Origin: Ruditapes philippinarum | Taxonomy: Eukaryota | Direction: 5' to 3' | Assembly (NCBI RefSeq): GCF_026571515.1 | Contig: NW_026862082.1 | Coordinates: 62,001 to 126,000, forward strand | Length of the DNA stretch: 64,000 nt | Part shown: positions 10,976 through 64,000 of the stretch, piece by piece | How the letters are laid out: every line of letters begins with the position of its first letter | Numbering within the stretch: the stretch's first letter is position 1 | The notes under the pieces: generated by a model | Database searches by the model: none | The model's input: the letters and a program-made list of their open reading frames with translations, nothing else | Told to the model about the DNA's origin: nothing | Program-made: the position numbers and the translations under genes

Positions 10976-11110
10976 TCGCTCAAGCCAGTGTAAGGGCTGC
11001 GTGAAGGATGTTGCACTTTTTTATAATCTCTCATGTACAGACTAAATTAAACATAGTCTGCAATTTTCATGTAATTTGAAGTTTTAATGCTTTCGTGGGA
11101 TCACCTTTTC
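10976..11110 (+). repeat. Module C, representative short copy (double stem-loop element)
   Basis: Homologues on + at ~27930 (3' fragment), 30500-30845, 32438-32580, 41509-42059, 43762-43895, 47960-48433 and 59245-59380. Homologues on - at ~30155-30260, 47320-47415, 61280-61390 and 63360-63525. Confidence 0.8.
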
Positions 11111-11641
11111 CCAGATATATTCACATTGTTTTCGAACATTTACTTGTTTATTTATTTCAGTATGAGCGTGATGAGATTCAACACGTCGAGTATACTGATA
11201 TTTTATATCATATTATTGTATGCCGTTTAGACAAAAATCATGCATTACTTTTGCTGCTATACCTGTTTATATCAATATTAAATTTATAGCAAAACTGGAT
11301 TTTTCATAAAAAATATATATATTCTTAACCCCGAGTGTACTGTTTTTTTGATAAACTGTCCATGCATTTTAAACACAAATACATGTAAATTGTAATTCCT
11401 TGCAACAGCACACGCACTGGATCCTAGATCGTTTTATACGCTGTTAAGCAGCATGTTAACACTCGTAAAAGTGCTATGAATATTTCTTTCATGAGAGGGA
11501 AACGAAAACTCAACAAAATATGCAACAATTCTGCTGGAATGAGTTATCTGATGTTTCTTCCTTGGCATTAACAATCAATTATAACAACATTAACATTCAT
11601 TTGGATAGTTAAAATTATTGTTGACACTTTATATCATTTAA

Positions 11642-12253
11642 CCTTTTACCCAATGAGCATATTGCAAAAAATGGCCGTTTTCATTGAAAAGCCTCCTGTA
11701 ACAAGTTCAAACTGCTATGAAACTATGAAAAATGCTTCAATACTGATGAAACTTGGCAAAAATGTTGACTACACCATAGCCTCTGTAACAGCATGCTCAA
11801 TCGTAAATTTCCCGTTACCATAGCAACGGGGGGACGTCTCAAAATTGCCAAAAATCACTATTTTGCATTGGTGTTTTTTCATCAAAACTGATTTCAAAGT
11901 GCTGCAACTTCTCAATAAATTGAGATAGAGAAAAAGGCTTTTCAGCGTCGGTCACTAGTTACCCTTAGATCGACCTGAGGCCATTTTTAACCTGTCACAT
12001 GTGCAAAATTTTCTTAGCGATGAGGGGGACTCCGCCCCCCTTCAAACCTCCCAAACAGAAGGGGGCACATCCCCCTTCTGGCAACATTTGGATGGGGGAC
12101 GGCGCCGAAAAAATGGTCACTTTTTTTAACAACATTTCTCAAACGAAAACCAGTGTTTGGGGCCTAAATAGGGTATTTTTTTACTGTTTGAGGCCTCAAA
12201 AAAGGGGGAGGGGGGCAAAAAGCCGTCGAAACACGCTTATATGAGGGAAAAGG
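11642..12253. mobile_element. Non-autonomous piggyBac-type DNA transposon (MITE)
   Basis: TTAA at 11638-11641 and 12254-12257 flank imperfect TIRs CCTTTTACCCAATGAGC ... GCTTATATGAGGGAAAAGG. The element is GC-richer than its flanks and has no transposase ORF. Confidence 0.8.
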
Positions 12254-12305
12254 TTAATATGGTATTCTTCCGGTTTTTGTATTAAAATGAAAATGTTGTG
12301 TCGTA

Positions 12306-12420
12306 ACAGAACAGAACAGAAACTTTATTATTGAAATTGTACAAAATACATCGTGTTACACAATACAATCAATTTAATATATTTTAATATAAGTCACATT
12401 ACATAATAATATCATAACAA
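12306..12420 (-). mobile_element. Probable 3' remnant of a non-LTR retrotransposon
   Basis: The minus strand reads AATAAAGTTTCTGTTCTGTTCTGT, a polyA signal followed by a short tandem-repeat tail. The 5' extent is uncertain. Confidence 0.4.
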
Positions 12421-13675
12421 GACAGATTCGTGTTTTAGCTCCCTCAACTAACAAGTGTATGCATTATTAATGTTCATAAAAAAGTTTGTGTAAACGCTAT
12501 TTTTCATTGCGAACGTTTACTTCAAATAAGGGATAAAAACTTTCATTCAAGGTTTAATTATAATAAGTTCAATATAGTACAAATATATTTATTCATACAT
12601 TCCAATAAAATAAAATGGTTTCAATCCCATATGAGTGCAAATTATTGCAAACTTCAAACTGTTGCAAAATATTTCGTCTTCTTTTTTATTTTTGCTATAC
12701 AATTTCTGTATTTTCGATTCAAAACAGGGAGGTCTTTCATGCAATATAGTTATTCAATACTTTATTTATAATAATCAAAAACCATGTGCGTTTTTAAAAT
12801 TGCAAAGGAACTAAAGGTTTTATTTTGGAGAACATGAAACAGTTTGCGTGATTCAAACTTTCAGTTTTGACTTGTTCACTTTACAAATGTTATACAAAGG
12901 AAGGAGATAGAAAACCATGTGCGTTCATCAACGCGACCCTGCCATGTTATTTTGTCATATAAATGTCAGAGATAATTATTTCTTTTTCCTATATAGTGCA
13001 ATTATGTCTAGAATTCCTATAGATAATGGAATGTGGTAAATTACATCGATATATCAGCGTGTATTGTATAAGCCTTTCTATTTCAAATATCCTGAAACTG
13101 TTGAATATTTAAAGTTTGTAACGCTAATAAAAAATTTAAAACTCGACATTCTATTGTTTAAGAAACTATCAAGCATAGATTGATATGACTTCTTCTACAG
13201 CAAATAAAAAAATCTCCAACACATGATTTTTCTTTACGATTGTCATCATTAAACTTATCTCTTGCTTACAATAAAATATACTTTAAAATTACCTCGGATA
13301 TGGAGCAAGTCGCATTTGTGATCAGATACAAAACATAATGCTTATGATAAAAGCTATTAATTCGGATAATGAATTTTACAAAGAAAATCCGTTGTTGAAT
13401 AAAAGATGATAGTTCTTTACCAACATAAATATAAACCCTATCAATAACTTTAGAAAGTCCTGAAGAAAATTTACTTGCCATTGGATGCATTTTTAACTTT
13501 ATCAGTATGATTAACGAAATATAATTCTAAGCAATTAATGACCACATTTCTACAATTATATATGAAAGTTCTTGCCATGTACATTGTGCATACTTTCGGC
13601 ATATCTTGTATAAGAAAAGTTAACATTCTTCGGGAAATCGAGATCAAACTTTGAACCTTTTTTATTCGTCTTACC

Positions 13676-13755
13676 GGCGTTTACATAGTTTTTCGCGCAT
13701 GAATCTGTCACAAGTGTCATGTCTTGTTATGCATTGACGAATTACATTGGCAGAC
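13676..13755 (+). repeat. Module B, representative copy (GGCGTTTACATAGTTTTTCGCGCATGAATCTGTCACAAGTGTCATGTC...TTACATTGGCAGAC)
   Basis: Copies, all on +, at 8158-8235, 9409-9485, 13676-13755, 15573-15652, 20368-20447, 22016-22095, 22898-22972 and 25517-25596. Confidence 0.85.
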
Positions 13756-16700
13756 ATAGCGTAGTTTATAACGTAAAATGAAAGAAAATTGGCAAAAAAT
13801 GCTAAAGCTAAGGAAATAGTTTGTTATATTCCCGAAAAGCAGAGTAAAGCAGGATTATCTAGGCCTGTTTGGCATATATCCTTTACTGGTTGTTGTGTTA
13901 TGATATATCAAAATATATTGAGCTCAAATTGTCTCTGGTTCATTTGAACACAACAGCACTGACCAGATCTCACAAACTGTAATAATTTGATTATTTTTTC
14001 TGACATACATTCGTTGCATGACCTTAAAACTACTACAATTTTATTATGATTGAAAACTATTTGAAAAGTTTTTAATGAAAAAATACAATTAATACGAAAT
14101 AATTACTTTATTCAGATTTGTAATTCGTATGTCATTTTGAAAACGATTCGTAATTTAAAGATATATACATAGATCCCTGACTTATTCTAATAATCAGATA
14201 AGTGAATACACATCGAATTTCTGCCCAACATATTTGTTAACAATAGAGCACCTGTCAATGTTTGTGGTAAATGTATTGTTATTCAAATAAAATGTTTGAG
14301 CAGGGATCTATCAATATAACAAGTGCTCAAAATTGAATATTTTCATATGCAATATGTTGTTAATTTTGGGGTTGTTATTACTTTTGCCCTTCGTTTGTTT
14401 TCCTTTGATTTTCATTTTTGTCCCTTTAAAATTTGTTAAAAGGTCTTAGCAGGGATCCTACAATGCAGAAATTCAAGATAACTGTATCTTATCAAATCCC
14501 ATTTATGTTTGAAATTGCCAACAAACAGAGAGTCTAAATTGATTATATGCCAAATGTTGCGTTTGAAAGAAATAGAAAACAATATTCACGCTCATTCATC
14601 TAATACAGTTTTGACCTACATTTTTGAGATATCCAACATTTCAAAATTGCATAATCGAACAGAAAACAGCTATGAAATACTTAATTATGGTAATATAAAA
14701 ATACAAAACTCATATAACACTTCTAACAAAGATTGTTTTAAAATTGGTTGGTCTACATTGAGCAAAAATTCAAATATTGATAAAAAAAAGTTATTAATCA
14801 TTTTCATATTCGTATAAAATGAAGGCTTGAAAAAATGTTGAAAGTGTTCTAGATGATTTAGCATGAACCTTTTTCTTTTGCTTTAATTTTCTTCAATTTT
14901 ATTTATATTTTCATTTTTTTTTTTTGAAATTTGTTTAAAGAATACCAACATCCGGAACCTTTGAAGCGGCATGCATCAATAATAATGCTATTTTTCATGA
15001 AAAATGTGACATGTATTAAAGGAATAGTGTGAAATGAAAACGAAATGAATTTATTTATAAACTTATTGCAAACAACGCTTGAATTCCACAAAAATATCTA
15101 ACTGTGTATGTCACTCAGTAGAAAAATGGTAATAAATACTGCAAAATTTGTTAAAATTATTCATAGCATGTACAAGTACATTATGACTTATTATCGAATA
15201 TTTTTATATCCTAAGATATTTGTACATTTTCATCAAATTTGATTTTTTAAACATATTTTGGCTCACCTCAAAGTTCGGAATTTTAACAACTATGTCCTTA
15301 TCTTTGAAGGCCATATTGTAAATAAGACAAGTATTTCTTAAAATGTTACTTTAATGAAATAAAGTTTTTATTATAACTATTATTATAAAAAGTAAATGAA
15401 GGCAGCTCTGATGTTTGCTTAAAGAAAAGAAATGAAATGGTTTCACACGACTTTCTCTTTGCTATTGAATATTTTTTCCTAACAATAACACAGTATACAT
15501 AGCTTAAATATGGCAAACAAGATCAACAAAGAAAATCTCGTAGCGACTTTGATTTCCTAAACTCATTTACTTGGCGTTAACATAGTTTTTCGTGCATGAA
15601 TCTGTCACAAATGTCATGTCTCGTTATGAACTGAACAATTACATTGGCAGACATAGTGTTAGTCGTAACAGACTTTTTGTGGAAATTGGCAAAACACTTG
15701 AAAACTTACTAAGCAAAACAATCCTTATGTCTGATACAAAAATCAGAAAAAAGGTTAACTTGTATTTCTGGCCCATATATGTATTAAACCATGATGCGCT
15801 GTTTTTGTGTAGCCTTCAAAATATAATGAAGAAACAACTTCGAAACTGAAGATTTCATTCTTAAGAGGAAAGAACCAGTGACATCACCAACGTTTTGTTA
15901 TGACAACGTATAGCTGACTTAATTATATTCCTTACTGTCATATTGCTAGGGAAGTCTAAGATTCATATATAAATAATTGCTTTATACAAAACATGGCACA
16001 AGGAATGAAATGAAATAAAAAATGTTGTTGCACTTTAACGGAAATGCACTCTGAATCATAAAATACGATTCATTTAATGAGTGTTCATGTTTCCATTTCG
16101 TCGTGCTTTTGCTCTACCTGTCGATATCTATTTTTTATATGTTATTATCATAAAATGTTTATGATAAATAAAATGTCATTTTAATATTCATTTATTTACA
16201 AAATAATCGTTAAACTTTAGTAACACATGTCATTTATATTTAATTTAAATACGATGTATGACAACATCAACAAATAATTTGGCTATTTTTACAAGAGTAA
16301 TTAGTCATAGGTTCGGATACTTCAAGAAGTGGGCAATGTTTTCATGTATTTGCTTCATTATGTAAGGAATTAATAATATAGGGAAGTCTTTATTACTTTT
16401 ACTATGTAACGATATGCGTGTGGTTTCATCTATTTCCTCAACATTTTTTTTCAACAAGGTTTTGCCAAATTATACTTTATAATTGTTTTTCGTCATTTAC
16501 ATGTATTATAAAAGGAATGTAAAGTTTGCAGAAGGGTTGATTATGTAATGCGCAATTTTCGGCAGTAGTTACGGAAAACCATGCTACGTGTACGAACGGT
16601 TTTTAAATATATTACTCAATACATGTGCATGTACAGTTTAATGTAAATTTGCGTCAATAATTCACGCTCCAGAATAAAATAAGGCTAATATAACATTTCT

Positions 16701-18657
16701 TTGTGATAAATACTGTGATGGGATTTTCACAGCATATGTACGCTTAGAAATGAAATACCTATCAACAAGGTCTTTCGTGTAAACATGTGAACCGTACAGT
16801 AAATTACGATATATGTCAAGAGTAATTTCATCACCACCTCCCTAAAATGATACAAAAATAAGATTTGTTTTTCCCGACATTTTCTGTCCTTCGTGGACGT
16901 AAACCAGTTATGTTTTAAATTTGCGTAAACCTAATTGTCAAATCATGCTTTTGATGGAGTAGTAATTCGACATGTATAAAATAAGATAATTTAAAAGAAA
17001 ACGAAGCTGCAGCAAAATTGTGGAAATTATTTAAGAATGCTTCCTGTAAAAGGATAATTTTAAATATGAACCATATCAATATATAGAAAACTTTTATTGA
17101 TATGTGGAGAAAATCAGGATCGGGAGCTAGTGTAATAAACGTATGTGCAACTGGGGTATTAAGCACCAGTTAAACTGGAATGTCGCCATGTGACCAATAA
17201 CAGCGTCTAAGTAAATGATGTGCCTACAATCGTAGTCCATTACATATACACAATAATCAGTAAAACCCGCAAGGGAATTGGGTTTATTTTTGTTAACTTT
17301 TCGAAAGCTTGGCGAAAAAACATCTGGGTTAAAAACTGTTTTCCCGTTTAAATATGGCCCACTTTTAATAACGGAGGTACTCTATTGATAGAAAAAACAG
17401 CTTTAATTTTAAATTTTAATAGGGGGAAATTTTGACAGGCTAAAATACCCAAAATTTGGAAAAGTAAACCCTTTTCTTTCAAAAATACTGTATTTAATGA
17501 AATTAATTTAAAAAAAAAGTAACAAAAAGCCAAAAAATTTTTTTTTACTATTTTTTTCCTACAAATTGTTTTTGTAAAGTTTTAGTAAATACATTTTAAA
17601 GGCAATTAAATTTGGTTTTGCGGCAGGTTTTTTTAGAAACAAAAAGACAAAAATTTTTCAAATTTAAAATTTAAATTTTGTAAAATGATGTAAAAAATTT
17701 CTGAAAAAAATTAATGGAATTAAACCATGTTTAAAATGCAGAAATTATAGAAAAAGGGGTTTAAATAAAATTTAAAAAGATAGTGATTTTAAAAAAATTT
17801 TTCTTTTTTTAAAGGGTTTTTTTGTGGAAGTGTATGATTTTAAATTAAAAACTTTGTTGATATTTTCATTTTGCGACTTTTATATAAATCCGTAGTTTTT
17901 ACTAGTATTTCCCCAAAATTTATAGAACCAATTTTTGGGAAAAAGGGAATTATTTAAAAAATTTAAACTCGCTTAAAAAATTTTTTAAAATTTTTCATAG
18001 CCCAAATGCAATTAACTCATTTGTTTGTAGTGTTAATAACAGTAAAAAAGAGTGTGCAAATATAAATATGTTGTAAAATTCAGTAGATCTTTCTGTTTGG
18101 ATGACCATTGGATTTTACTACTAAATACGGTGAAATATCAGATCAGTGTGCATTATTTACGTTCATAGAAAATAACTGTGAAAACTCGTGTTTATCTTCA
18201 TTGCAATATAACGGTTACTTCAAATAAATTTTATTTTAAAAGACATTTATCTTAAAGGTTTATTACAATTAGTTCTTCAAAGTACAGAGACATATACCAT
18301 TGCTTTAAATTTAATAAATTGATATTTATGAGAGCAAACTATTGCAAAATTCAATTTATTGCAAATTATTTTGTCTTCTATTTGTTTTTGCTATTCACTT
18401 TCTTTATTTTCGATTCAATACCGTGAGTTTTTTCAGTGATATAAAATGTTATTTTCTTATTCGATACGTGTGGGTTTTTGAAATTGCAATGGAACTAAAC
18501 GTTATAGTTTGGCAACATGCCAAACTATTCATTTAAAGTGTGTTTGAAACAATATTTAAATTTATTAATTATATAAACTATTGCCATTTGTCCTTTCACT
18601 GTTTTCAGCTTGTTCTTACATGAAACAGTTAACGTGATACAAATTTTCAGTTTTGAC

Positions 18658-19010
18658 CTTTTATTACATGTTTTTCGATGGTTTATAGAAATATATCAGT
18701 GAATTAAAACTGATAATTTCACTGTTTTGAAACAGTGAAATTACCACTTTGATAATTTCACTGTTTTGAATTTAAGCCCCTTACGTTGTTTCAGTGAAAT
18801 ACCAGCGTGCACAGTACTGGGTACCAACTTAATGACGTAACGTCGTAAATGACGTCACGTTGTATTATTATTTGGCGCACTTTTCATTCAGTATTAGTTA
18901 TAATAATGTCTTTTTAAAACGTTTCTTTGCATGTAATAAAAAGATAATTTGTTTAGTTTAGTGTAAGATCGAAATATATTTCACCTTGTGAACACCAAAA
19001 GTTCATATAT
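18658..19010. mobile_element. Small inverted-repeat-rich insertion (non-autonomous DNA element) interrupting a module A copy
   Basis: Absent from the paralogous position (~12870-12920). Inverted pair TTTTATTACATG (~18659) / CATGTAATAAAA (~18930), plus the internal palindrome ATAATTTCACTGTTTTGAAACAGTGAAATTA. Confidence 0.65.
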
Positions 19011-22000
19011 ATATATGCGATCATCAACGGGACCCTGCTGTGGTGTTATGTCATATAACTGTCAGAGATAATTATTTCTCTGTCCTTTATACTGCAATAT
19101 GTCTGGGATTCCTACAGATATTTAAGCAACACAGAAAAAATGGAATGTTGGTAAAAAAAAACGCTGAAAAAAATCAAAAGTGTAAATTTCATAAAACAAA
19201 ATTTTTAAATTTTTAAAAAAAATACCTTTTTTAAAAATAAAGAAAAAGTCCACCTGAAAACTAAAATGGGTAAAACTCCCCAAACCCCTGTTTAAAATGG
19301 GAGTTAAAACTCACTTAAAATAACAGGTTTTTTTTGGCAGAAATTAAATTTTTTAAAATTTTCCGGGCCCCTTTTTAAAAAAATTAAAATTAAAAAATTT
19401 TCCTGTATTTTTTTTTCTTTGCCCGGGCTTTTTAAACTTTTTTTTTAAATACAATTTTAAAATTTTAATTTGGGGACTTGAGCAATTTGTGACGTTTTTA
19501 ATATTTTTTTAAAATAAATTTTATCAATTTTAATTCAAAAACGTTTTTTTAATGTTTTTTTTTGCTTAAAAATTTCCCCCAATCGGCAAAAAAAAAAAAA
19601 AATTTGCCTTTTTAAAGAAGGTTTGTATTTTTAAATAATTTTAATTTATTTTTTAATTGGCCCCCTTAAAACCCTTTTTTTTTGCAAAAAAAAAATATCA
19701 AAAACCCCCCACCCTTAAAGGGGTTGTTACCCGCTAAAACAAAAATATATATGTCTTGCAATTTTTGAATCACTTGAACCCAAAAAAGATTTTGAAAATT
19801 CGGGCTGATCGACATTTTCGATTGAAAGGAGTTAAAAAAAAACTACCTGTTTTTTTGAAAAATTTAAATGATAAGTTATAAAGCATTCGTTGATATGACT
19901 GCCTTACACTTCATTAAAAAAAATCCTCCAACAATTTGAATGTATTCATGATTGTCATCAATTAAAACTAATTCTTGCTTACAATAAAAATAATTTTACA
20001 AATTACCTCGGCATATGGATCAATTTGCAGTTTTGTCCGGATACAGATCACATAAAAAAAACTTTAAAAGAGGATAAAGGATTTTACTTAAAAAATCCAT
20101 TGCTGAATAAAAAATGATAGCTCTTTACCAACATAAATATAAATCCTACAAATAACTTTAGAAAGGCCTGAGGAAAATGTACTTTTTCGAACATTATCAG
20201 TGTGATTAACGATGTATGATTCTAAGCAATTAATCACCACATTTCTACAATAAATGAAAGGTCTTGCCAAGCAAATTGTGCATACTTTCGGCATATCTTG
20301 TATAAGAAAAGTAAACATTTTTCGGGAAATGGAGATCTAACTTTGATCCTTTTTTATTCGTCTTACTAGCGTTTACATAGTTTTTCGCGCATGAATCTGT
20401 CAAAAGTGTCATGTCTCATTATGTATTGACGAATTACATTGGCAGACATAGGGTAATTTATAACGCAAAATGAAAGAAAATTGGCAAAATAATGCTAAAG
20501 CTTAGGATGTAGTTTGTTATATTCCAGAAAAGGAGGATTATCTAGGGCTGTTTGGAATACATCCTTTACTCGTTGATGTTTAATGATATATCAAAACTAT
20601 ATTAAGCTAAAACTGCCTCTGATTCATTGAAACGACAGCACTGACTACATCTAACAAATGGTTGTATGACCTTAAAATATAATTATTACCATTTTGTACA
20701 TTTTATGACGATGTAAAACAATTTGAAAAGTTTTTAATGTAAAAACTTCTATTGATACAAAGTTATTTTATTCAACTTTGGATTTCTTTAATTTCAATTC
20801 AATTCAATTCAAGAAACATGTAAAATTGTAATTGTTATAGCTATATTGAAACGTTCCTAAGAATGATCAAATATGACAAGTGATAAAAAACTGAATATTG
20901 GCATGCGCGTTAAGAGGTTAATTATTTTGAGTTGTTATTATTACCTTACGTTTGTTTTGTTTTCCTTTTTTCTTTCTTTTCTGTTAAAAGATTTAACTGG
21001 TGAGTCCTGCAATGAAACACTTTAAGATAACTGTATCTTATGAAAACCTATTTGTGTTTTGAAATTGCCAACAAATACAGAGTATAAATGGTTATATGCC
21101 AAATCCTGCGTTTGAAGGAAATTGAAAACAATATTCGCGTTCATTCATCTAATATAGTTATGACCTACATTTGTTGAATATGTAGCATTTCAAAATTGCA
21201 TAATCGAACATAAACAGCTATGAAATACTTTATTATGGTAATATAAAAATATGAAAAAGATATTACGCTTCCAAAGAGGCTTATCTGCAAAAAGTACTTT
21301 ATCTTAAAGTTGATTGGTCTACAACAGGCACATTTTCGAAAAACAATCAAATATCAAAAAGTATTGAAAATTAGCATGTTCATATTCTTATAAAATTTTG
21401 CCTGAAAAAATTGAAAATGTTCTAAATGATTTAGTATGAACACTCAGAGGACGAAAAAAAATATTTTTGTCCATTTATCCATTGTTTATGTCTAAGAAAA
21501 GTAAGATTTATGAATACTATGAAAGTCTTTGTTCTCTTCCATGTATATCACATATTTCTTATTTTTACTCTATTTGGAGTCGATAAAAATGATAAAATCA
21601 ACTTATTTACATAATTTACATATATTCTAATAATGAAAGTTTAGATATTTTAAATGATATAGTGTCTTTGAATAATAATATTCTTCAACACTGACGTTAG
21701 TAAAATATTACTGAAATTGAAATAGATAAATCGGGTAATGAAAATGTTACAGTTATAAAAATGTTAGCATGGTAAAATTATCACAAACAATTAGTTCTTT
21801 AACTTTGATGTTAAATCTTTCAGAAAAGTGTATGTAACATTGAAAATATCATAAAAGAAAACACATAGCTACTAATGACTGAGGTTTGCTCCTAGAAATG
21901 AAATGGTTTCACAAGACATTTTTCTTTGCTAGTGAATATATGTTCGTAACAAGAACACACAGTATATATAGCTTAAAATATCGTAGCGACTTTGATTTCC

Positions 22001-28000: not shown

Positions 28001-28029
28001 AACCCTAAAATTGTATACAGTAAATAATG

Positions 28030-51086: not shown

Positions 51087-53714
51087 CAGTCTACATTACT
51101 TATAACGAGATCGGTTTAAACGAGGTACCGCTTACTACGTATATTCTACTGTGTTCCAGCCTTTTTATACGCCCGTTTGAAAAACGGGACGTATTATGGG
51201 AACGCCCCTGGCGGGCGGTCGGGCGGCCGGCGTCCAATTTTGTCCGGAGCATATCTCCTACATGTATGGAGGGATTTTAATGAAACTTCATAGAAATGTT
51301 CACCACTATTAGGAGCAGTGTCACGCACATAAACCAGGTCTCTAGGTCACAGGTCAAGGTCACACTTAGAGCTCATTGAAAAATGCTTGTCCGGAGCAAA
51401 ACTTCCACATGTATAGAGGGATTTCAATATTACTTGGCACAAATGTTTACCATTGTGAGGCGGAGTGTCGCGCGCAAGATTCAGGTCCTTGCAGCCAAGG
51501 TCAAGGTCACACATAGAGGTCAAAGTTCAGATAAAAATATGAAGATGTGTATATGGACCATTTAGTCATCATTTATTGAGGGATTGTAACACAAATGGTC
51601 ATTATCAAGACTATGTCTGTGAAACATATAATTTAGGTCAATATATACAAGGTCAAGGTCACTAAAGATGATGAAATATCCAGATTTTGACCGGAGCATA
51701 TCTCCTACACGCATGGAGGGATTTTAATGAAATTTCATAGAAATGTTCACCATTATGAGGAGCCATGTCACGCACATGAACTAGGTCTCTAGGTCAAAGG
51801 TCAAGGTCACACTTAGAGCTCATTGAAAAACGCTTGTCCGGAGCAAAACTTCCACATACATAGAGGGATTTCAATATAACATGGCACAAATGTTCACCAT
51901 TGCGAGGCGGAGTGTCGCGCACAAAATTCAGGTCCCTGCAGCCAAGGTCAAGGTAACAGATAGAGGTCAAAGTTTAGATAAAATATGAAGATGTGTATAG
52001 GGACGATTTAATCATCATTTATTGAGGGATTGTAACACAAATGGTCATTATCATGACTACGGCTGTGACAAATGTACTTTAGGTCAATATATGCAAGGTC
52101 AAGGTCACTAAAGATGGTGAAATATCCAGATTTTGTTTGGAGCATATCTCCTACATGTATGGAAGAATTTTTATAATACTCTATGGAAATGTTCACCACC
52201 ATGATATGTATTGCTCCATGCATGATCCAGGTCTCCAGGTCAAAGGTCAAGGTCACACTTAGAGCTCATTGAAAAACGCTTGTCCGGAGCAAAACTTCTA
52301 CATTCATAGGGGGATTTCAATATAACTTGGCACAAATGTTCACCATTGTGAGGCTGAGTGTCGCACGCAAAATTCAGATCCCTGCGACCAAAGTCAAGGT
52401 TACACATAGAGGTCAAAGTTCAGATAAAAATTTGAAGATGTGTATAGGGGCCATTTAGTCATCATTTATTGATGGATTGTAGCACAAATGGTAACTATCA
52501 TGACTACAGGTGTGACACATTTAATTTAGGTTAATATTTGCAAGGTCAAGGTCACTGGAGATGATTTAATATCCAGATGTTGTCCGGAGCATATTTTCTA
52601 CATGCATGGAGGAATTTTAATGTTACTTTATAGAATTGTTCACCACCATGAGACGTAGTGCCCTGCACATGAACCAAGTCTCTAGGTCAAAGGTGAAGGT
52701 CACAGTTAGAGCTCATAGAAAAACGCTTGTCTGGAGCAAAACTTCTACATGCATAGAGGGATTTCAATATAATTTGGCACACATGTTCATCATTGTGAGG
52801 CTGAGTGCCGTGCATAAAATTCAGGTCCCTGCGACCAAGGTCAAGGTCACACATCCTGTGCATATCTTCACTACTGATTTGTTTTAAGGTTCATTTAACA
52901 ACACAGTGCCAAGAATAAAAACTTGCTTGCTAGATAACACTTATCCATAATGCCCCCATCTCCATCTAAAGCTTTCGTAAACGGGCGTATTTTGTGACTA
53001 TGGCACCCTTGTTCCTTCTATTTTCCTTTCATTTTATATCGTTTATAACGAGATCAGTTTTTTAGCGATTACATCGTACATATATTTGACGTCCCATGCG
53101 TAATTTTCAGAATTTTACCGAGGTCACGTCATTGGCACTTCGTGTGCACCATTTTGTCACCTTGAGAAAAACGATGGTGACCAAAAACAAAGGTCAACTA
53201 AGGAAGAAATTACTGAGCAATTAGCGATCAAATGTGTCAGTCTTGTTTTGTCAACGCTCCGGGCTAAATTGTCCTTTAGCTGACGAAATGTTATAACCAA
53301 ACTATTTCATTAAGTGATAAGCACAAAGAAAGCGGCTAATTTCTTGCAGTGCTATTCGGTGCTCGTGAGAAATACACTGCGTGACTTTTAAAAAAAGAAA
53401 TTTAAAATGTACATATTGATAACAACACAAGCGGTTTGGCGTCGTATCGCTTTTCACATGTTTTGTTTAAATTCTATGATAGCTAGATATATTTTTTTAT
53501 ATGTATATTTAAATAAAACAAAAACTACTGTGTGCAAAGAGTTACCTCCTATTATGTACTCTTTAAAAAAGAGGTACGCGAAAGGGAAAGTAGAAATAAA
53601 TGCTGTTCGACGTTGTCGGATTTCTCAATTTGTTCTGTCCCGGTTATAACGAGACCTATTATAACGAAGAATCATGCAAAGTCCCGACGATCTCATTATA
53701 TCCGGAGTGCACTG
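51087..53714. mobile_element. Tc1/mariner(pogo)-type MITE hosting a nested insertion
   Basis: Ends CAGTCTACATTACTTATAACGAGATCG ... CGATCTCATTATATCCGGAGTGCACTG followed by TA, with repeated TTATAACGA subterminal motifs. The empty site TTTCCCATATTTCGATC is at ~36711 in copy 1. Confidence 0.75.
51162..53013 (+). mobile_element. Helentron-associated non-autonomous element (HINE/DINE-1-like) carrying a tandem repeat array
   Basis: Starts in a T run. 5' subTIR ATACGCCCGTTT (51167-51178) has a local hairpin partner AAACGGG and is followed by a GGGC/GGTC microsatellite. Internal ~447 bp units start at 51244, 51691, 52137 and 52584. 3' subTIR AAACGGGCGTAT (52979-52990), then a short imperfect hairpin and a CTTGTT end. 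Confidence 0.88.
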
Positions 53715-54837
53715 TATTTCGATCTAACAGATCCTATTAATTGTTTTTTTTTAATCATCGGAAAAGCAGTAAATATGGTCAATTATAAATCATAATAATC
53801 TTTCGTCGAAGCGAATTCAATGAACCAATTTATACTCTTGGAAACAGAGGGCAAAACTGACATAGACTAACAAAGATACACTATTTAGTATATACACTCT
53901 TCAGACGTAATCAATTATTCTTACAATTATTTATTATAAAACAATTAAATAGAGGCATGTCCCATTATGAATAAATGTCAAACATAAATCGTTTGTCGAG
54001 CAATATCGATTAAGTTGTTTTAAGATACTTTTGAGAAAGAAATTATCTTAATGCCATTGGTCATGCGGACGTCTGAGTATTGCACTGATTCTCGTATTTT
54101 TACATCTTCTTTGCACGGAAAGATCATTTAAAAAGGGGTTTCAAACGATTTTGCATTCTCTTGAAACGTATAATAGAAAATTGTTTGTCTTTCATGCGAA
54201 AGACAATTTGCGTACGTAACTATAATTTGGCATTTAGAATACATAAAATTCGAATTCTAAAGCAAAACACATGTTCATTGATTTCAGGCTTCAAGGCCAT
54301 TTAAGTGAATTAAACAGAAATACACGTTTGTGACTATTAATTGCCAGTGCTGGCATTCCTCAGAAACATGAAGCAATGATTACAGAAATATTCTCTTTCT
54401 TTAAGGTTCATTATGCTACCATTTTTATTTCACAAAAACATGATTGTTTTAGCATATTACTACAGTTTCCAAAAAATACACACATTTGCTAAATGAAAGA
54501 ACTCTTTCCTTATTTTGCTTGGTTTGCAATTAGATCATTATAACAGTGAACTAGTAGTTTGTATGGTAGTCAACATCACTATATTGCCTACATTTTGCTT
54601 CCTCTAAGGCACATCAATGAACATTTATCGCTACTGTCATCAGCTTTTAAACATCTAACATACCCTTACTTCATAAATAATATTTTATTTAACTTACGTT
54701 TGACATTTCTAAAGAAATTCATAAAATGTGGATCTCCGATGTTAACAGAACACAAACATAATAAAAATAATTATAATAAGAAGAAGAAGAGGAAGAGGAA
54801 GTTTTAAATTTTGAGAAATACAAATGAAAACACTTTG

Positions 54838-55148
54838 ACCGGTACCGTTGGCCTAGTGGTTAAGGCGTCCGCCTTCGGATCGGGAGGTCGAAGGTTCGAG
54901 CCCCACGGGGAGCGCTAATTGAAGGATGAATGTTTCTCGTGGGACTCGTTCCGAAATGGCCGCATCGTGAGCCGCGAGGTAGTTAAAATGAATGGTTACC
55001 GATTTCTATCCGCCTGGCGCCTGGCATAGTGGTAGGAATTGGGATGTACATGGTATACAACCAAAAGGTGTCTCATAAGTCAAAATGGCTGGCCCTTTCA
55101 GTAGGGGTGACACTATAATAAACAAGACCTTTACCTTTACCTTTACCT
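54838..55148 (+). mobile_element. Full-length tRNA-Arg(TCG)-derived SINE (family 1)
   Basis: A box TGGCCTAGTGG, B box GGTTCGAGCCC and an (ACCTTT)n tail. Absent from copy 1. Confidence 0.92.
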
Positions 55149-55850
55149 ATACAAAAGTTAGAAAATTGGTAAAAACGTTTCTGTATAAATCGCTGCCTTT
55201 CAGATGACTGTGAAAAATAGCAAACATAGATAGGATTGAAATCTCTGTTTATTTAAATTAGATTATTGCATTTGACTTTAATGATTTTTTCGAATGAAGG
55301 AAGAACATTTCTTATTAATAGTTTTGTATTAAAATGTGTATTGCCAATTCAGTATAAACATAATATAATAAATAGTTTAGCCTTAAAAGACGTGTATAAT
55401 ATAGATGTGGAAAACACAGCATGTGGGAGGAAACACATAATTTGTTCAGAATTTGTTCGAAAGCAAATAGGTATTGGAGAAAAAGTTCAGCTGAATATTG
55501 GATAAGATAATCTATTTATTAAACTAGTAAAATAACCACGAAAAATACTCTTCCAAAATATTTGATGAAGAGAGAAAATAAGTTGATTATTGTTCTTTGC
55601 AACCTTGCCATGTTATTAGATCGTATATCTGACAACGTAAATTTTCTTGAAGTGGTTTTATAAAAGAAATAAAGATAATGAAATACAATGAGAGCAAAGT
55701 TTGAATTATGCGAAATGCTAACTTAACATTTAATATTTTTTTAATATTTTGTATAATGTAATTTGATATCTTTATCTTGGTACTAAACTTTGAGAAAAAA
55801 TAAAGCAATCCTTAAGTATTTGTTGGTGGCACTTTTAATGCTCCTGTTGA

Positions 55851-56685
55851 TTAGGAAATAGATATCAATTCTGAGTGCATTGTTGTAGAATAATGCACGG
55901 TTTGAGTTCAAATGCGTAGTAATATAATCACGAAGGCCGATAGGCCTGAGTGATTAATTACAAAGCATTTGAACAAAAAACGTGCATTATTATACAATAA
56001 TGCAAGAAGAATTAATATCTTTTTCCATTCTAACACGTCAAGAAAAATTAGAATTATTATTATAAAGTTGGACTTTATGTTTGGTGGTTAAATTTGTTTT
56101 CGCCTGAGAGTTTCCCATAGACACGTTCTTTAAAGGCTGTTCCAGTGGGTTGAAAGAAACTGTCGTTAAATCTACCGTTTGTAGAAACATTTTGAGAATA
56201 ACGAATTTTGAAAACGTTGGAAAAACTTTGTTTGTTTATTTTATTTCACTTTATAATTTTTCAAGCGAAATTCAAATTATTAAAAGTGAAATAAATGTAA
56301 AACTTAACTCGTTTGCGACATTAAAATAGCGTACTTGATTTGAACGTTTTGTACGTGCTGTTTGGCGCTACATTTTGACGTCACGTAAACAACACTTAAA
56401 ACGTCTGTACAGCGTTAACGACTGAATTGAAGATATTGGTGTTCGGATTCATTTTCTTAGTTAGACCATTTTCTTTCATTCTAGATAGCTTTCACAACAA
56501 AATTCGACAAAAAATGTTTTAATTTATCACATTTTTTAAACAAAATGGCGCCCTCAATGTGAAAATACACAGGGAGGTAATAAGAACGGCGAGTGCATTG
56601 TTGAAGAATAATGCACGCTTCGGGCCTTCTTTGTTTATATAGAAAAAAATCTGATAGTGTTAGAATAGTTCGATCTGGCTTCCAC
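55851..56685. mobile_element. Non-autonomous element with a ~170 bp terminal hairpin
   Basis: Absent from copy 1 (~38757). Imperfect palindrome at 55854-56026 centred on AGGCCGATAGGCCT. IR ATTCTAACAC (56027) / GTGTTAGAAT (56657), and an internal direct repeat GAGTGCATTGTTG.AGAATAATGCACG (55873, 56591). Confidence 0.75.
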
Positions 56686-59600
56686 AACTTTTTTTAACCA
56701 GTTTTTGTTGCATCTGCTGCGGCACAAAGGATTTGGACCCGACCTGTTTTGAAACCTAAGCAGAATAACGCATTTTCGTTTAACATTGGTTTAACTAGCA
56801 AACCCTCTTTGAAAATTATTTTTAAGGATTATGCAATAGAATATTTATATCAACATAGAACTATAAAATTCAAAGTATGAAACTACAAGTACAATCAATT
56901 AAATAAAACAAGTAAGTCACAACAGTCAGAAACACATAGTGTTGTTTTCTTAGCCGTCTGTGCAGATTAACCAGCAATGGTCAAACGAGTTATCACGTGA
57001 AAACAAACACAATACGGCTAAGATGGCGACGAAGTGATAAAGATTGTAACTTATCGGGGATTGCTAGGGAGTTTATGTTCGAAATTAGTTGTTATTGTTG
57101 TTGTTTTTGATAATTGGCTTGTTCATAGATGATATATTTTTTACAGCACACGCTTCACCCTATGGCATACATGTACTACATTAAACGCATATCAGTATAC
57201 CACGTGGATTTCACCTACGGCGTTGTTTTCAGCGTTCCAGTCCTGACACAGTATAAAACGGGTACGCTTATACCTTAAACAAGCTTTAATTACCTGTTAA
57301 TAGTAATTTCAAAGTACTTGCTCATAGCCATTTTTAAGTATTTGTTGAAAGCAATATTTAAGCACTTGTTGATATCAATACTTAAGTACGTGTTGATAGC
57401 AGTCTATAAGTACTTGTTGAAAGAAGTTCTACGTAACTCTTGTTGTTTGGTTGATAGCAATTGTTAAGAACTTATTGATGACAATTTTAATAACTCACTG
57501 CTACTTCTTGTATTTGTTGATAGCGGTCTTAACTTATTTGTTGATTGCAATATTTAAATACGTGCTGATAACATTCATTTAGTCCTTCTTGATATAAATT
57601 GATAATAAATTTTACTAGTAATTGTTGATTTAAACATAAAAGTTCATGCAATATTACAAAGTGGTAAACAAAGAATGAATGTTTCATGTTTGTACAAGAT
57701 TCAGTAAAGTAATACTTGAAGATGATTGCTATTATAAAATAATGATCCTGACTATAATAAACAGACTTTAACATACCCCTGCTCTTTGTAATAATTTGAA
57801 CTTACCTGAAATAGAAAGAGACATTATTTAATAATATTACGAAGACATTTTGATACAACTATCTAATGAACAATTTAATGAAACCTTTATTTAATACTGA
57901 TGATTAATCAACACGAGGAAACATATTGGACACAACAAATATCTAACGAACAAACAATTAAGTAAAAATTCCATATTTTGTTTAATTTACAAACTAATTC
58001 GGTTCATTAATTGGAAAAGCATAAATTTTAATACCTCCTCGGGAGTATTTGTCTTATTCTTTAATTTTGCTATGGTATCTTTGTTTGCATTGTTTTTTTG
58101 TTTTGTTTTTTTGTTGTTGATTTTTTGTTGTTGTTTTTTGTTAGTTTTAAGATTACATTTGTTTTATTGCCATATCTAAAATATTGATTGTTTAGGTGGT
58201 TTGGGCTTTAGATTATGACAAACGCAAGTGGAAAACAAATGTTTTATACCGAGGAGTAAAGTAGGTTCTTTGTCTTTAATTGTATACAAATATTTTATCA
58301 ATAAGTGCATGCTCGGATTCTAAACCATTATTTTGAGTAATGCTTATGCCATCAATATTTATTGTTTAATTATTCAATTTATTGATGAAACTAAATGTAG
58401 GCTAAAACAAGGACTAATTTATCAAAACTGATCCATCATTTATTTTACTAGACCATATACCCATCTATTTTCTTTGTTAGAATGCCGTTAAATAACAAAG
58501 GAAGAAATAAATGATAACATGTTGAAACAATTATTTGTAAAAATTCATTCGAGCGAAAACCATTTATTTCATAATTATTAAAGCGTTAAGGTAAGAAAAT
58601 CATCAATGTTTGTATTAATTAAGAAGATATATACATGTATTTAAAAAAAAATAAGCATGTGTCATTTATTATTAAGTAATGTGTTCGATTCATTTATTTA
58701 TTTAAAAAATCACAGGCAACGCATATATCATTGATCGACTGCATAGTGTACATAATAATTCTGCAATTATATTAGTTTTCCAAATAATTATGTTACTTTT
58801 ATTCACTCGTTGGTAAAGATATAACTTTCATTCCCAAATTGGTAAATATAAATGTTACAATTTAACTGTGTTTCACTTGTGTTTTTTTAGAACGTTTCTT
58901 CATTTATATGCACTTTAGCATAACATTTTGTACTTTCATGCAGGAGCAAAATCAACTAATTTAGGTAGTTCAGCTTAATGCAAAATGTTTCGCAAATGAC
59001 TAATAAAATGTGTATGTTTCGGATAACATTTTATCGGATCACTAGCCGTTGCCTCCCACACTTAAGCTTTTGTAACTTTAAAACATAGCTTAAAAGAAAG
59101 CTCTCTACTTCCTATCAATGCACTTCAAACGATAAAGATATGCAATTCGGGTGCTAAATTTGAATAAAAATATAGCAAATACTAAATATAAATATACCAG
59201 TTTTGTTTGTTGTGTTTTCCCCAGAACTTAGAAATAATTAAACTTGAGTACCGCTCAAGCTGGTGCTAGGGGTCGTATGGGATGGTACACTTTTTTCAGT
59301 ATCATGTACAGACTCAATCAAACCGAGTCTGCATTTTTCATGAAAGGTTGTTGTGAATAATGCTTCTGAAGGGATTTTTTTTCAGTTTTTTTATATGATA
59401 TGAAAATTGGTTTATACGGTGGACAATTGCTTCGTCAGATTTTTTTATTCATTTATATATTCAAATATTTTACATATGCTTTAATTTTTTGCATTAGTTT
59501 ATAAGAGCATCGTTTTCATGCTTTTGTTTCTGTACAATTCTGTAAACTAAATCAATTTGAAGAAAGGCAAACTTCCCCGTCTTATTGGAATTTCTTAGAC

Positions 59601-62214
59601 ATATAAAGAAATACGGTGAAGATGTTTTACTGTAATAAATAACAAATTTAGAGATGCACCTCGTTTCCTGAACTAATAAACATGTCAATGTATAGTGTGC
59701 TAGATAAATTATTTTTTCAAAAACGCTCTTAAACTATTCTCATTTTGTTTGACTGAAATTCAATTACAGATGTATTTAAATAAAGAATGTACTGTATTCT
59801 GTTTCTCGGAATATCTTTCTAAATACTTCTTTTTGATACTTTAAATATATTATGTTAAACAGAAACAAATGATGATATATTTGGTAAATATGTTCAGAAA
59901 ATTCTATTTTGTTGTAATTGTTCATTTGTTATTATTACATTTATAATTACACAAGACACTTAAGCAACAATAAAGCACTTGAAATACCCCGCTTCAAACA
60001 TACTTCCTAGGCTATTTCTAATAAGCTGTGTTAAATTATATCAAATGCTATCTTGAGTTTCTTAACATTTAAGATTTAATGTATCTAAACCGATAAAACA
60101 GGGTATTCAATTAAACCACATGAGCTTATTTAATCAGCAGAATGACAGTTTGAAACTAAACATGTACTTAAAAAACATTTCAGGAGAGAGTAATCTCGTT
60201 TTGATATTGATTTGAAATGTATGTTTTTAAATAGTTTATTGGAGATGCTGATGGAATGCAGCATACTGAACGTAATGATTGTGCTATAACTAGAATAGAA
60301 AGGGACTCCACTGAGGTATTTTAACATAACATGACTATAAATGGTTGAGGTGTGTGTACCATTTGATGACGGTCTCATTCTCTTTACCAGCATAATTAGT
60401 TTAAGTCTCACAAAAAAGAGTGTGATACTTGTTAATATATAAACTTCTGCACAGTTACATGTATTGTTAAAGTAACCATGAGGTCTCTATAAATACAAGC
60501 TTAATATCTAAATATGTTGTTTTTGCTCGTTCAATGTAAAATATTACATAACCTATATACCTACCATGATCATTAGCGTTAGAATTATAAATTAAGCTCT
60601 AATTTCATTACTCTTTGTAACACTGGAGTTTTTAATCCACAGTACAATTGGATGGTACCACCAGACTTTCATTCATTATGTAAATTAGTATTATAGTTAC
60701 ACTAATTATTATTATATAATTTACAAACTAATGGACTAAATTCTCTAAATTATATAAACCCTTTTCCTCCCGATCAAAGCTCGCAAATGATAAATGTAAA
60801 ATGTAATTTAACTGACTCCCACAGTGCTTAAAGTAAACTGTATTTAACAAGTTATATCAATTGATTTTTTTAGTCTTAAACGTTCTTATATGAATCTAAA
60901 AACGGCTAGATTATTCTAAAACAGCTATTGCTCTTTCCGCACTGTACATGTATGACGCCATAATTTCCCTTGACCTTAACTGTTAGGACAATTTTATATA
61001 TGTTAAATTTAGGAAAATGTGTGTTTATTATATGTTATATTATACAATTATTGACTAGTGAGCTATTGCAAGATCAATCAAAATGATTTTTACCGGTGAT
61101 GTCACATCATATTCAATCATGGATAACCCATTAACTGTTATATTTATTTATTATTTTGTTTAAAAACAAAAGATTCCACTCTGTAACTTCAAAATATAGC
61201 AAATCTTAATTTCTAGTTCACACATATAATTCTTGATTATGTAAACGTTCGCCTAGGTACATCGATAATATAAATATCTAGAAAGAGTGATCCCTTGGAA
61301 GCATTAAGACAGCAAAATTACATGAACATTGCAGGCTCGGTTTGAGTCTGTACAAGAGGGATAATGAAAAAGGGCAACATCCCTCGTGACCTTAAACTGC
61401 TGAACGTTCACATGCATAACTTCAATATGTTGTAGTCAAAATGTTTCATAAGACAATAAATGTAAAACTTTAACGCCGCTTCTATTGACAGATTTGAGAT
61501 GTTCGATATAAAATACAACAGAATGAATTCATGTCTGTCTGGGCGGTTTACTATCTCAATTATATGTTTGACATCTCCATTTAAGAAAGTTAATAGTATG
61601 TCTGTCTGTTGCGAACTATATAATCTATGAAATAAATAATTATTGTACTTTATAATTGGTATTCTTGAAAGAGAAGTGGTTACTAGTATATGTACAAACT
61701 ACCAAATTGCCACATTTGAATACTGTTGTCCATGCATTATCTTTACCCACAAGACAGAATTAATTATCCGTATGCTTTAATATTTGAAAATTAACTTAGA
61801 ATTTCTCTACACCTTCTATTGGCCTCAAATGTGTTTAAGACGTAATCAGATTTTTTAAAAGTGATTGATTGGTAGGTATAGGTATTTCTTTCTTATTATT
61901 TGCTGCTGCAATTTGTATCAGCAGCTTCAATACTAATGTCAAATGCGACTTGAACAATCTTAAACAATAAAGGCAAATTCCTAGATACGAGATTTGACGT
62001 TAGCTAAATATTTTCTGTTTTAATTGTAAATAAATTAATTGTAATAATTTAAAATTAAAACTTTATTTTTGATACAATGTACGATGTGAGATACATTCAA
62101 ATGACATACATCGAGTAAGATTGTGTGTATGCCCTAAATGGCTTCGGAAGTGTTTGTATTGGAGAAGGGGCGCATATTGGGTTTGTTCTGTTTGGATGTC
62201 TAGCTGCTCATACT

Positions 62215-62401
62215 TCGTGAGCCGCGAGGTAGTTAAAATGAATGGTTACCGATTTCTATCCGCTTGGCGCCTGGCATAGTGGTAGGAATTGGGAGGTACA
62301 TGGTATGCAACCAAAAAAGTGTCTCGTAAGTCAAAATGGCTGGCCCTTTCAGTAGGGGTGACACTATAATAAACAAGACCTTTACCTTTACCTTTACCTT
62401 T
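62215..62401 (+). mobile_element. 5'-truncated SINE family 1 copy
   Basis: Matches 54965-55148 and has an (ACCTTT)n tail. The empty site GCTCATACTTTCAGG is at ~48700. Short TACTT direct repeat at the flanks. Confidence 0.9.
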
Positions 62402-64000
62402 TACTTTCAACCTTGGTTAACACGGGGGACAAAAAGCCTAAAACAGTATAATCTGAAATTCTACCATGGATCTCTTTAAATCGAAAGATCTGCAACAAAA
62501 ATAAAAAAAGAATGTCCTCCAGAATAACACTGCAAATCGTCAAGACAAAATGAGGAAATTATCTGAAAATTTGCACATAAGTTATTAGTCAAAAACCTTC
62601 AACAAATGGTACACAAATCTCGGGAATACAGGTCCAGTCTAGTCACGTTAAACAAAAAATATGATAAACAAATTCAACAAGAAAAGGCAGCGCTCAATGA
62701 ACGCAATTCCAACACGACCATGAAACAAAAACCATCGGTCAAGAACCCAGGAGGACCGCAAGCAAAAACAAAACCCTCAGTGTAGTTCCATTAATATGTG
62801 CATTTTGCATTTTCAATTGGAATATAAACTACCGACATAAATGCAAAATATGTGTCAATAGTTTTTGGTTAGCAAACATATAGTTTGCATTTATCTTAAG
62901 GCTTTTGTTTCCATATATATTTTTAGACTTACGAAACGCAAACACATTTTTGTCATTCATGTGCTCTGAGCTCAAGTTGGTATATTGTTTCGTTAAATTC
63001 TGATGTTTAAAGCATATTTAAGAACATACAAATTTCCGCATCTTATTTGAATTCTCAGACATATAAACAAAGCACTGACAATGTTTTTTTCGTGATAAAT
63101 AACAAATACAAAGATGCACATCATTTCATAAACAAATAAACATGTCAATGCATAGTGTGCTAGATAAAATAGTCTGTTTTGAAAAGTGCCCATCGCTGTT
63201 TAAATCGAGCTTGTTTGAATAATTTTCAATAACAAGTTGTCAGTTCTGGCAGTTATTTGGAGGTAAGCATGCAAGTTACAAGACATACTGAACATAAAAT
63301 GCCTAAAACTGTGAACAGCATATTCCCTAAAGAACGCATAAAAATACGATATAGAAAATGTTGATTGAGCCTGCTCATGGACCGTACTGGAAAACGCAAG
63401 TTACCTTCACGCCACCATGCCCCCCCCCCCCCCAAAAAAAAAAAACAACAACGGTTTAAGCAGAATTAAGCGTTTAAACATGAAAATGATGAAAATTTAA
63501 AGTTTAGAAAACACTCGCAGACGTGGTTACCATGAAACCTTCTATACAAGTATGTTTTATAAGAAGTGCATGTATTAAGGAGTAAATAAATGTACATTGT
63601 AAGTATTAAAGCAAACAAACAAAACTAACCATAAAAGGAACACTCCTATAGATATGATTATCCAATTCTGCTTAACTTTGATAAAATAGTAACATTATCT
63701 TTTCTAGAAAACAAATATGTCTACAGAAAGTCATATATATATATTTATTTATTTCTCATTTTGCATTTGGCAACCGTTTTAATATGATAAAAGTTAGTTG
63801 AGTTTCTATAATACAGATTGTTTGATAAAGAAGTTCTTTATCAAATAATTACAAGATTACCAGTTCAATCCAAATGATATAAGACAATAATAATAAGAAA
63901 AAAAGAACAAGATTTCTTTACAAAGATCTTTTTTATATGTATAAATTAGATTAACAATTTATAAGTTATGGTATAAAAAGTCAATTTAATGAACTTATTA

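Follow-up and report, generated by a model that had tools for sequence, protein, structure and literature searches.

biv-TRIM-like repeats of Ruditapes philippinarum are probably non-autonomous Naiad elements with a structured, fixed 3′ end

The repeat biv-TRIM, known from 11 bivalve species, was described as a terminal-repeat retrotransposon in miniature (TRIM) of the long terminal repeat (LTR) type, with two terminal direct repeats (TDRs), an inner domain and a polypurine tract (Satovic et al., 2019; PMC6934838). That paper found no primer binding site (PBS) or partner for it and proposed no mechanism, and part of its sequence set consists of PCR products bounded by the paper's own TDR primers. 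Naiads are Penelope-like elements (PLEs) described as forming partial tandems with 5′ truncation and inverted copies nearby, and as lacking a canonical hammerhead ribozyme (Craig et al., 2021; PMC8557442). Non-autonomous Naiad forms are reported in Chlamys, for example MRC1, which was once mistaken for an LTR element; the metadata file of the same paper, in the form available, has no 'nonautonomous' entry. Here we analysed a 64,000-nt stretch of the R. philippinarum genome (contig NW_026862082.1, positions 62,001-126,000; hereafter the window) that carries dispersed copies of a non-coding sequence, Module C. These copies had been noticed in an earlier, sequence-only reading of the window. Module C is very probably the fixed 3′ end of two non-coding families, one of them matching biv-TRIM, which share a junction module and targets with an autonomous Naiad and are likely copied by its reverse transcriptase (RT)/GIY-YIG protein from tandem RNA.

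The two families, types a and b, resemble Naiads in their partial tandems, 5′ truncation and lack of a canonical hammerhead, and perhaps in neighbouring inverted copies. Unlike the Naiads of PMC8557442, they are non-coding and 283-630 bp long. They also resemble non-LTR retrozymes, which are described as short tandem non-coding units present as monomers and multimers, and as PLE-derived or PLE-dependent (PMC7229834; bioRxiv 10.64898/2026.07.22.740005). They differ from the retrozymes of these texts in having no type I hammerhead, no sign of abundant RNA in two unstranded runs, and a Naiad instead of a hammerhead-bearing PLE as partner. A further comparison is the Poseidon PLE of Anolis. Its reverse transcription in vitro starts inside the RNA near the protein-binding region, and AT-rich DNA is cut (Frangieh et al., 2024; PMC11167929). 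An internal start (proposed for the elements studied here), AT-rich targets and tandem loci are common to Poseidon, Naiad and types a and b. Poseidon differs in clade and sequence, in its two start sites and in its hammerhead, and for types a and b the mechanism is one that we infer.

Genome searches placed Module C in the last ~150 bp of both families, type b (283-297 bp) and type a (~630 bp). Head-to-tail arrays reach at least 7 units in type b and at least 4 in type a. A third lineage, c, is represented by four metagenome stretches, two of them near-identical. The Module C repeat is a major repeat of this genome, with roughly 10^4 young to 10^5 total copies. A 23-nt stem-2 pattern has 20,320 exact matches genome-wide, compared to none for the control. 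A profile search gave 38 matches in 400 kb sampled at even spacing from large contigs, and none when the sequence was reversed; extrapolation from these large contigs, in which the matches are clustered, gives a total of ~1.3 × 10^5 copies. Read depth in run X21 corresponds to ~24,000 copies of type b at 90% identity or more, if the run is genomic DNA and the genome has this size. Both X21 and X22 carry the label RNA-Seq. They contain joints at GATC sites and a 0.58% share of the repeat, look like ligation-type (Hi-C-like) DNA libraries, and were treated as DNA.

The ends of the units are distinctive. In each type, one site accounts for most of the distinct 3′ termini of the fetched loci: 117 of 165 in type a and 94 of 114 in type b. 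A T-run (TTTT) follows the fixed 3′ end in types a and b and in Naiad, and the insertion sites of all three have T-rich flanks. The 5′ termini are scattered over the unit (n=170 for type a, 115 for type b and 122 for Naiad). The partial tandems, fixed 3′ end and 5′ truncation of a non-autonomous PLE are therefore all present in types a and b. Empty sites were found for 13 nested type-a/b insertions, with target overlaps of 0-9 bp (BLAST edges, microhomology included). Several positions were struck independently: position 2274 of Naiad by type b and Naiad, position 525 of type a by type a and Naiad, and position 216 of type b by type a and Naiad. Two further empty paralogous sites lie inside the window, where a ~14-kb tandem segmental duplication (34641-48917 vs 49202-62621, 82-88% identity) provides the comparison. 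The site at ~58218, paralogous to the type-a unit at ~41508-42057, is empty with a 3-bp overlap, and the site at ~61950, paralogous to the unit at ~47957-48429, is empty with a 4-bp duplication, TTGA.

An inverted piece of type a, type b or Naiad adjoins the 5′ end in 18 of 170 type-a and 11 of 115 type-b cases, some of which are nested insertions. Joins between a/b units and Naiad were considered as template-switch chimeras and rejected, as most are nested insertions beyond which host sequence resumes. We found no ribozyme-defined 5′ ends in Module C; type-b ends are in excess in bin 1-10 owing to upstream pieces too short for the limit of BLAST. Two spots in Module C, the stem-2 loop and the stem-1 flank, recur as sites of later a, b and Naiad insertions (L036, L072, L153, L159, L190, L209 and L222), and deletions start in the stem-2 loop in several copies. 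The recurrent insertions may partly reflect the choice of loci.

By sequence comparison with the material in PMC6934838, type b matches biv-TRIM read on the opposite strand. The published TDR R primer is the reverse complement of the Module C start, with 1-2 mismatches in types a and b and none in two loci (L132 and L133). The TDR F primer has 4 mismatches in type a and Naiad and more than 4 in type b. The conserved inner segment of biv-TRIM is found in type b with 1 mismatch. Type b implies a TDR of 203 bp and an inner domain of 80 bp, compared to published values of 202-218 and 77-80 bp (PMC6934838). Type a may correspond to the copies with 250-385 bp insertions in that paper. Tandem arrays and mostly truncated copies are common to biv-TRIM and type b.

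The behaviour of the ends is not that of an LTR-type element. The single site that holds the 94 of 114 type-b 3′ termini lies inside the TDR, and the 10-bp bins at its two borders hold 3 and 6 of the 115 type-b 5′ termini, which is no excess. A fixed target duplication of 4-6 bp was not found in the 13 nested a/b insertions, where overlaps vary from 0 to 9 bp. Reverse-complemented, the purine tract of biv-TRIM corresponds to part of the Naiad-shared module. Ends inside the TDR and a Naiad partner with a shared junction module thus set the repeat apart from the published description of biv-TRIM. Since the tests for a TRIM fail on the ends and the variable overlap, and most features of a non-autonomous Naiad are present, we assign the families to the Naiad type. 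Our verdict is that the biv-TRIM-like families are probably ribozyme-less non-autonomous Naiads, that is, a known repeat with a better-supported identity, and that biv-TRIM has probably been misclassified. The sequence-only reading had called the element undescribed; type b had in fact been described, filed as an LTR-type TRIM lacking a partner. The biv-TRIM text available in PMC6934838 does not contain stems 1 and 2 or the junction fold. Our literature searches found no paper linking biv-TRIM to Naiad; Repbase and Dfam were outside their scope, and a reclassification may exist there. As far as these searches reach, the type-b sequence is already described, and its likely identity, partner and junction fold are new.

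The partner was reached through an RT fragment beside one array, which led to a young, abundant Naiad family in the same genome. This family has an N-terminal GIY-YIG domain, a DKA motif and in-frame TGA, at positions matching the description of clam selenoprotein Naiads (PMC8557442). A fold similar to a selenocysteine insertion sequence follows the frame (L064:2675-2736; E 0.0022, below the gathering score). The Naiad 3′ ends also concentrate at one site (86 of 123). In tandem Naiad copies, a ~100-nt module lies just 3′ of the fixed end, and the same module follows the ends of types a and b. The Naiad and type-a versions are 89% identical over 91 nt. The module is also present in a second Naiad subfamily (2 of 15 loci). 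Types a and b therefore have both a terminal sequence and a target preference, seen in identical positions and T-rich flanks, in common with an autonomous family of the same genome.

At the place of Module C stems 1 and 2, Naiad has a single G-run hairpin. Both structures finish 28-31 nt before the end. Judged by position only, the hairpin may be homologous to the Module C stems; the profile fails to detect it. In 30 Naiad loci the Module C profile matched only neighbouring or nested a/b copies, and nothing within the Naiad 3′ untranslated region (UTR). A search of 1.17 Mb of fetched loci for other Naiad families with Module C gave only relatives with the same end type, and a search for a further Naiad subfamily with L186 as query gave L186 itself and two short weak matches.

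Other features of Naiad were observed in these loci. The frames of four loci (L112, L116, L120 and L123) contain several in-frame TGA codons at conserved cysteine positions. At tandem junctions (L113 and L116), a GTAAGT donor is found in the 3′ UTR, and a pyrimidine tract and AG follow the shared module. This arrangement suggests that an intron spans the junction of tandem copies, as it does in Penelope and Chlamys. Both subfamilies contain a stable fold ~430 nt upstream of the Naiad 3′ end (L064:2950-3050, + strand; L230-L259), with a z-score of -4.2. It can be fitted to the type-P5 layout of a twister, in which the second pseudoknot is CC/GG and the first is short, and its side hairpin covaries between the subfamilies. 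A twister descriptor, written after the motif was seen, matches both subfamilies and 0 of 200 shuffles. The Rfam twister models give no match to this fold. Two of 30 5′ ends lie at the site, which is also a T-rich target. The fold is possibly an active twister variant, a suggestion that we hold with slightly more doubt than belief. It would be notable if true, as Naiads are described as having no canonical hammerheads.

Covariation was analysed in an alignment of 26 hand-picked copies out of 282 distinct full-length copies. The elements of Module C are located as follows in the complete type-a copy of the window:

41899-42048, + strand: complete type-a Module C (profile E 3.7e-40), the 3′ end of the 5′-truncated unit at ~41508-42057
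41907-41926, + strand: 5′ part of Module C, reverse complement of the published biv-TRIM TDR R primer with 1 mismatch in 20
41931-41965, + strand: stem 1 (arms 41931-41940 and 41956-41965), whose loop has a conserved TTGCA
41969-41991, + strand: stem 2 (arms 41969-41975 and 41985-41991), with the 9-nt loop AATCAAACC

In stem 1, both sides have changed in 6 of 10 pairs, and pairing is maintained in 84% of cells compared to 31-43% in slid controls. Counted by lineage, there are at least 6 double changes in stem 1 among types a and b and the metagenome lineage c, and one in stem 2. The sequence-only reading had reported that stem 1 differs in sequence and keeps its pairing; stem 1 is indeed the strongly covarying helix. 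It had also reported two independent double substitutions in stem 2. The A-U/G-C exchange is a lineage-level difference between types b and a, but CAGACTA/TAGTCTG was found in one of 340 distinct contexts, a single decayed copy. RNAalifold, proposed in the same reading as a check, recovered stem 1 from the 26-copy alignment and missed stem 2. In 18 of 120 copies, on many contigs, a type-b subfamily shows one more double change, for which intermediates are few. The count is inflated because a search had selected copies for this change. The state also occurs in lineage c and may not be independent. One G-U pair persists in 22 of 26 rows when read on the Naiad-sense strand. This points to RNA of that polarity and counters correction of a palindrome. 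Pair 45/69 occurs in three different states. The stems fold under DNA parameters too. The unpaired 5′ part of Module C is nearly invariant across the three lineages. A candidate pseudoknot between loop 1 and GGUGC shows no double change, and a second invariant partner, no worse than this one, follows closely on stem 2.

A second structure extends beyond Module C. Its last ~30 nt are predicted to pair with a segment located after the shared module, ~105 nt downstream in the next unit. Both sides have changed in 12 of 36 consensus pairs of this junction domain, with a covariation term of -3.71 (9 sequences from 4 lineages: a, b and two Naiad subfamilies). The fixed 3′ end falls inside the domain, and the closing stem is pairable in lineage c too.

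These observations suggest how the families may be copied. If the a/b transcript is tandem or circular, the final ~30 nt of Module C would pair into the next unit, so that a long hairpin encloses the start site. The Naiad protein would bind this junction domain and nick T-rich DNA. By analogy with another PLE in vitro (PMC11167929), cDNA would begin internally at the U-run. Copying would then run back through Module C over a variable distance, sometimes across several units, and stop at random. With an internal start and a random stop, the 3′ end would be fixed, the starts would scatter, arrays would arise and Module C would outnumber the remainder of the unit, as observed. In active master copies, selection probably acts on stems 1 and 2 as RNA structures, which are likely an enlarged counterpart of the single Naiad hairpin at the same place. 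Our best guess is that they aid protein loading or RNA stability. The Naiad-shared module, the ends, the target overlaps, the covariation and the junction fold agree with one of the suggestions of the sequence-only reading, a structured RNA of a non-autonomous retroposon.

Several points weigh against this explanation. Mobilisation of types a and b by the Naiad protein is a step that we infer. Module C proper, with stems 1 and 2, has no profile match in the Naiad 3′ UTR. The optional PLE tail of 30-40 bp (PMC8557442) was not found in type a, type b or Naiad, where 91 of 92 Naiad ends lie within 10 nt. Most loci were fetched by Module C or RT queries, which biases the end positions and their frequencies. 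The shuffle control for the stems leaves relatedness out, and the changes come from no more than three lineages plus one subfamily. Single copies give mixed folding z-scores (-3.6 to +1.2), and the basal G-run helix of Module C is absent from the minimum-energy fold of types a and b. RNA is also scarce. Two unstranded RNA runs contain 728 Module C-repeat reads of 7.37 M and 1,329 of 11.05 M (0.010-0.012%), from libraries in which small circles may be lost. This share is ~50-fold below that in the DNA-like runs, and the reads show no pile-up of ends. Among the data sets listed as containing the repeat, none is recorded as RNA.

Known RNA classes were searched for in the repeats. Rfam gave no Module C match at the gathering threshold in the window, or at E≤10 in the arrays, Naiad and metagenome loci. 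The idea of a non-coding RNA family, also raised by the sequence-only reading, finds no Rfam family, and the RNA level is far below the DNA share. No type I hammerhead was found in the units by Rfam or a core descriptor. Twister was rejected, with 0 descriptor matches on both strands of a, b and c (descriptor based on the twister consensus, core strands and two pseudoknots, any circular permutation) and none in Rfam. A hairpin with a 7-nt loop ending in AAGC, followed by a G-run, resembles P4 of twister-sister; compared by eye, the loop agrees at 5 of its 7 letters in type b and at 4 in type a, and the other strands of that ribozyme, as given in PMC7373991, are absent. The type-a GC-UUAAG-CC resembles the pistol linker, but the catalytic-loop strands given in the same source are absent and Rfam has no match. 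By eye, the repeat also lacks the pistol arrangement of a P1 loop pseudoknot placed right behind the AAG linker, with GCG and a GU cleavage site following. A fit to the hepatitis delta virus ribozyme was rejected by eye against its consensus. No short interspersed nuclear element derived from tRNA, 7SL or 5S RNA was matched inside the arrays; a weak tRNA match in L007 lies outside the element. The sense strand of the units has several runs of four or more T. In L028, ~1.35 kb in, a hammerhead-like core lies by a Penelope-type RT fragment directly upstream of a type-b array; it is probably a chance neighbour from another PLE family.

Two alternative functions for Module C deserve discussion. 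It could act mainly at the DNA level as an internal RNA polymerase II promoter, the function of a PLE pseudo-LTR (pLTR), with the stems as by-products of quasi-palindrome template switching. The near-invariance of the unpaired 5′ part in a, b and c would suit a promoter, as would its G-rich run, which we take to resemble an Sp/KLF box, and the units have no other obvious source of transcription. PLE promoters are also reported to sit in the pLTR (PMC8557442). However, template-switch correction would turn G-U into Watson-Crick pairs, and the conserved G-U pair, the three states of pair 45/69 and a closing stem that pairs over ~105 nt and across the unit border all argue against by-products. 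A promoter role is in any case compatible with RNA structure, and we consider the purely DNA-level explanation unlikely. Module C could instead be a ribozyme of a class not yet listed, which cleaves itself, perhaps with help from a protein, and so divides tandem transcripts into circularising units as retrozyme hammerheads do. It occupies the position of the hammerhead in PLE pLTRs, its loops are invariant, the possible loop-1/GGUGC pseudoknot is kept in lineage c via one-sided changes, and its 5′ hairpin is like twister-sister P4/L4, the type-b loop agreeing at 5 of 7 letters. A circular template would suit the multi-unit arrays and their one start. Yet the pseudoknot has no double change, Rfam gives no match, neither a twister-like nor a hammerhead core is found in a, b or c, the defining flanking strands of twister-sister and pistol are absent, Module C has no hot spot of 5′ ends, and the RNA is scarce. 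We find this quite improbable. The same low probability is given to a broader version, in which biv-TRIM and its 630-bp sister are Naiad parasites, as ribozyme-swapped retrozymes, Module C represents a new self-cleaving class, perhaps aided by protein, that makes unit circles for rolling-circle reverse transcription, and Naiad carries its own permuted twister variant.

Two other origins were considered. An LTR-type TRIM, moved by an unknown LTR retrotransposon, has the published layout in its favour, and unit length and motifs agree (PMC6934838). The genomic ends fall within the TDR and not at its borders, overlaps range over 0-9 bp, and the Naiad-shared module contains the purine tract in reverse complement. 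The paper itself found neither PBS nor partner, and part of its set is delimited by its own TDR primers. We regard this origin as very improbable. The terminus of a non-autonomous Helitron or Helentron moving as single-stranded DNA would explain one fixed end, tandem arrays and hairpins. The stems do fold with DNA parameters, and bivalve satellite-like arrays are often reported to be Helentron-borne. Helitrons follow a TC...CTRR rule at their termini, and no such termini are common to a and b. The short target duplications, and the ends and targets shared with an RT element, also argue against it; the rolling-circle terminus suggested by the sequence-only reading does not fit them. This origin is hardly credible.

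In the window, a profile built from natural copies detected 13 Module C copies on both strands (E<0.05), compared to 0 in the reversed window. About 12 had been counted before, also on both strands, and all stem arms quoted for them were located where that reading had placed them. Not all copies are independent: those at 43759 and 59242, and those at 47323 and 61280, are paired sides of the segmental duplication. The 3′ motif it quoted, ATGCTTCCGAGGGATCAC, holds for type b; in type a the equivalent has diverged. Module C does not stand alone; it is the 3′ part of 283- and 630-bp units. In addition to the complete type-a copy, profile searches gave the following:

48281-48427, + strand: type-a Module C, in the unit at ~47957-48429
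30711-30849, + strand: older type-a Module C with the stem-2 3′ arm deleted; the unit begins at ~30438
63312-63467, - strand: decayed type-a Module C (match reaches 63545)
10969-11116, + strand: decayed type-b (biv-TRIM-like) Module C, the sole CAGACTA/TAGTCTG variant
32435-32583, + strand: type-b Module C (E 9.9e-40)
43759-43895, + strand: type-b Module C, segmental duplicate of the 59242 copy
59242-59384, + strand: type-b Module C
47323-47417, - strand: 5′-truncated type-b Module C, segmental duplicate of the 61280 copy
61280-61391, - strand: 5′-truncated type-b Module C
30154-30262, - strand: 5′-truncated type-b Module C, first unit of a partial tandem
30014-30143, - strand: second unit of the 30154 tandem, with the Naiad-shared 'module A' (type-b positions 7-152; E 4.8e-14)
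27895-27979, + strand: 3′ fragment of type-b Module C
5192-5241, - strand: type-b-like fragment with the stem-1 3′ arm and stem 2, outside the range of the sequence-only reading
62660-62772, - strand: 3′-terminal fragment of the autonomous Naiad, the likely partner (E 2.5e-10)

Several other features were found in the window. Its left part holds an older set of duplicated blocks (7488-26000). A different repeat, unrelated to Module C, forms a tandem array of 447-bp units (3 × ~147 bp) at 51233-52854. A dispersed repeat has ~7 copies (4523-4780, 5827-6063, 10461-10671, 12835-13027, 19013-19139, 24878-25027 and 32148-32335), and a separate repeat of ~85 bp is found at 8160, 9411, 13676, 15573, 20364, 22016, 22893 and 25515. 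On the - strand, 1273-1755 has a signal-peptide-like start and a carboxylesterase-family match (E 5e-8), and is probably the first exon of a carboxylesterase-family gene, which we presume to be neuroligin-like.

The assignment to Naiad bears on both groups of elements. The published orphan biv-TRIM gains a likely partner and moves from LTR elements to PLEs. This reassignment would take away one of the few animal TRIM cases and repeat the story of MRC1. Naiad and its dependents have the conserved ~120-nt RNA domain in common, and it is present only where two tandem units meet, which would explain why the elements travel as partial tandems. The choice of an internal start by a PLE reverse transcriptase becomes testable on a 283-nt template.

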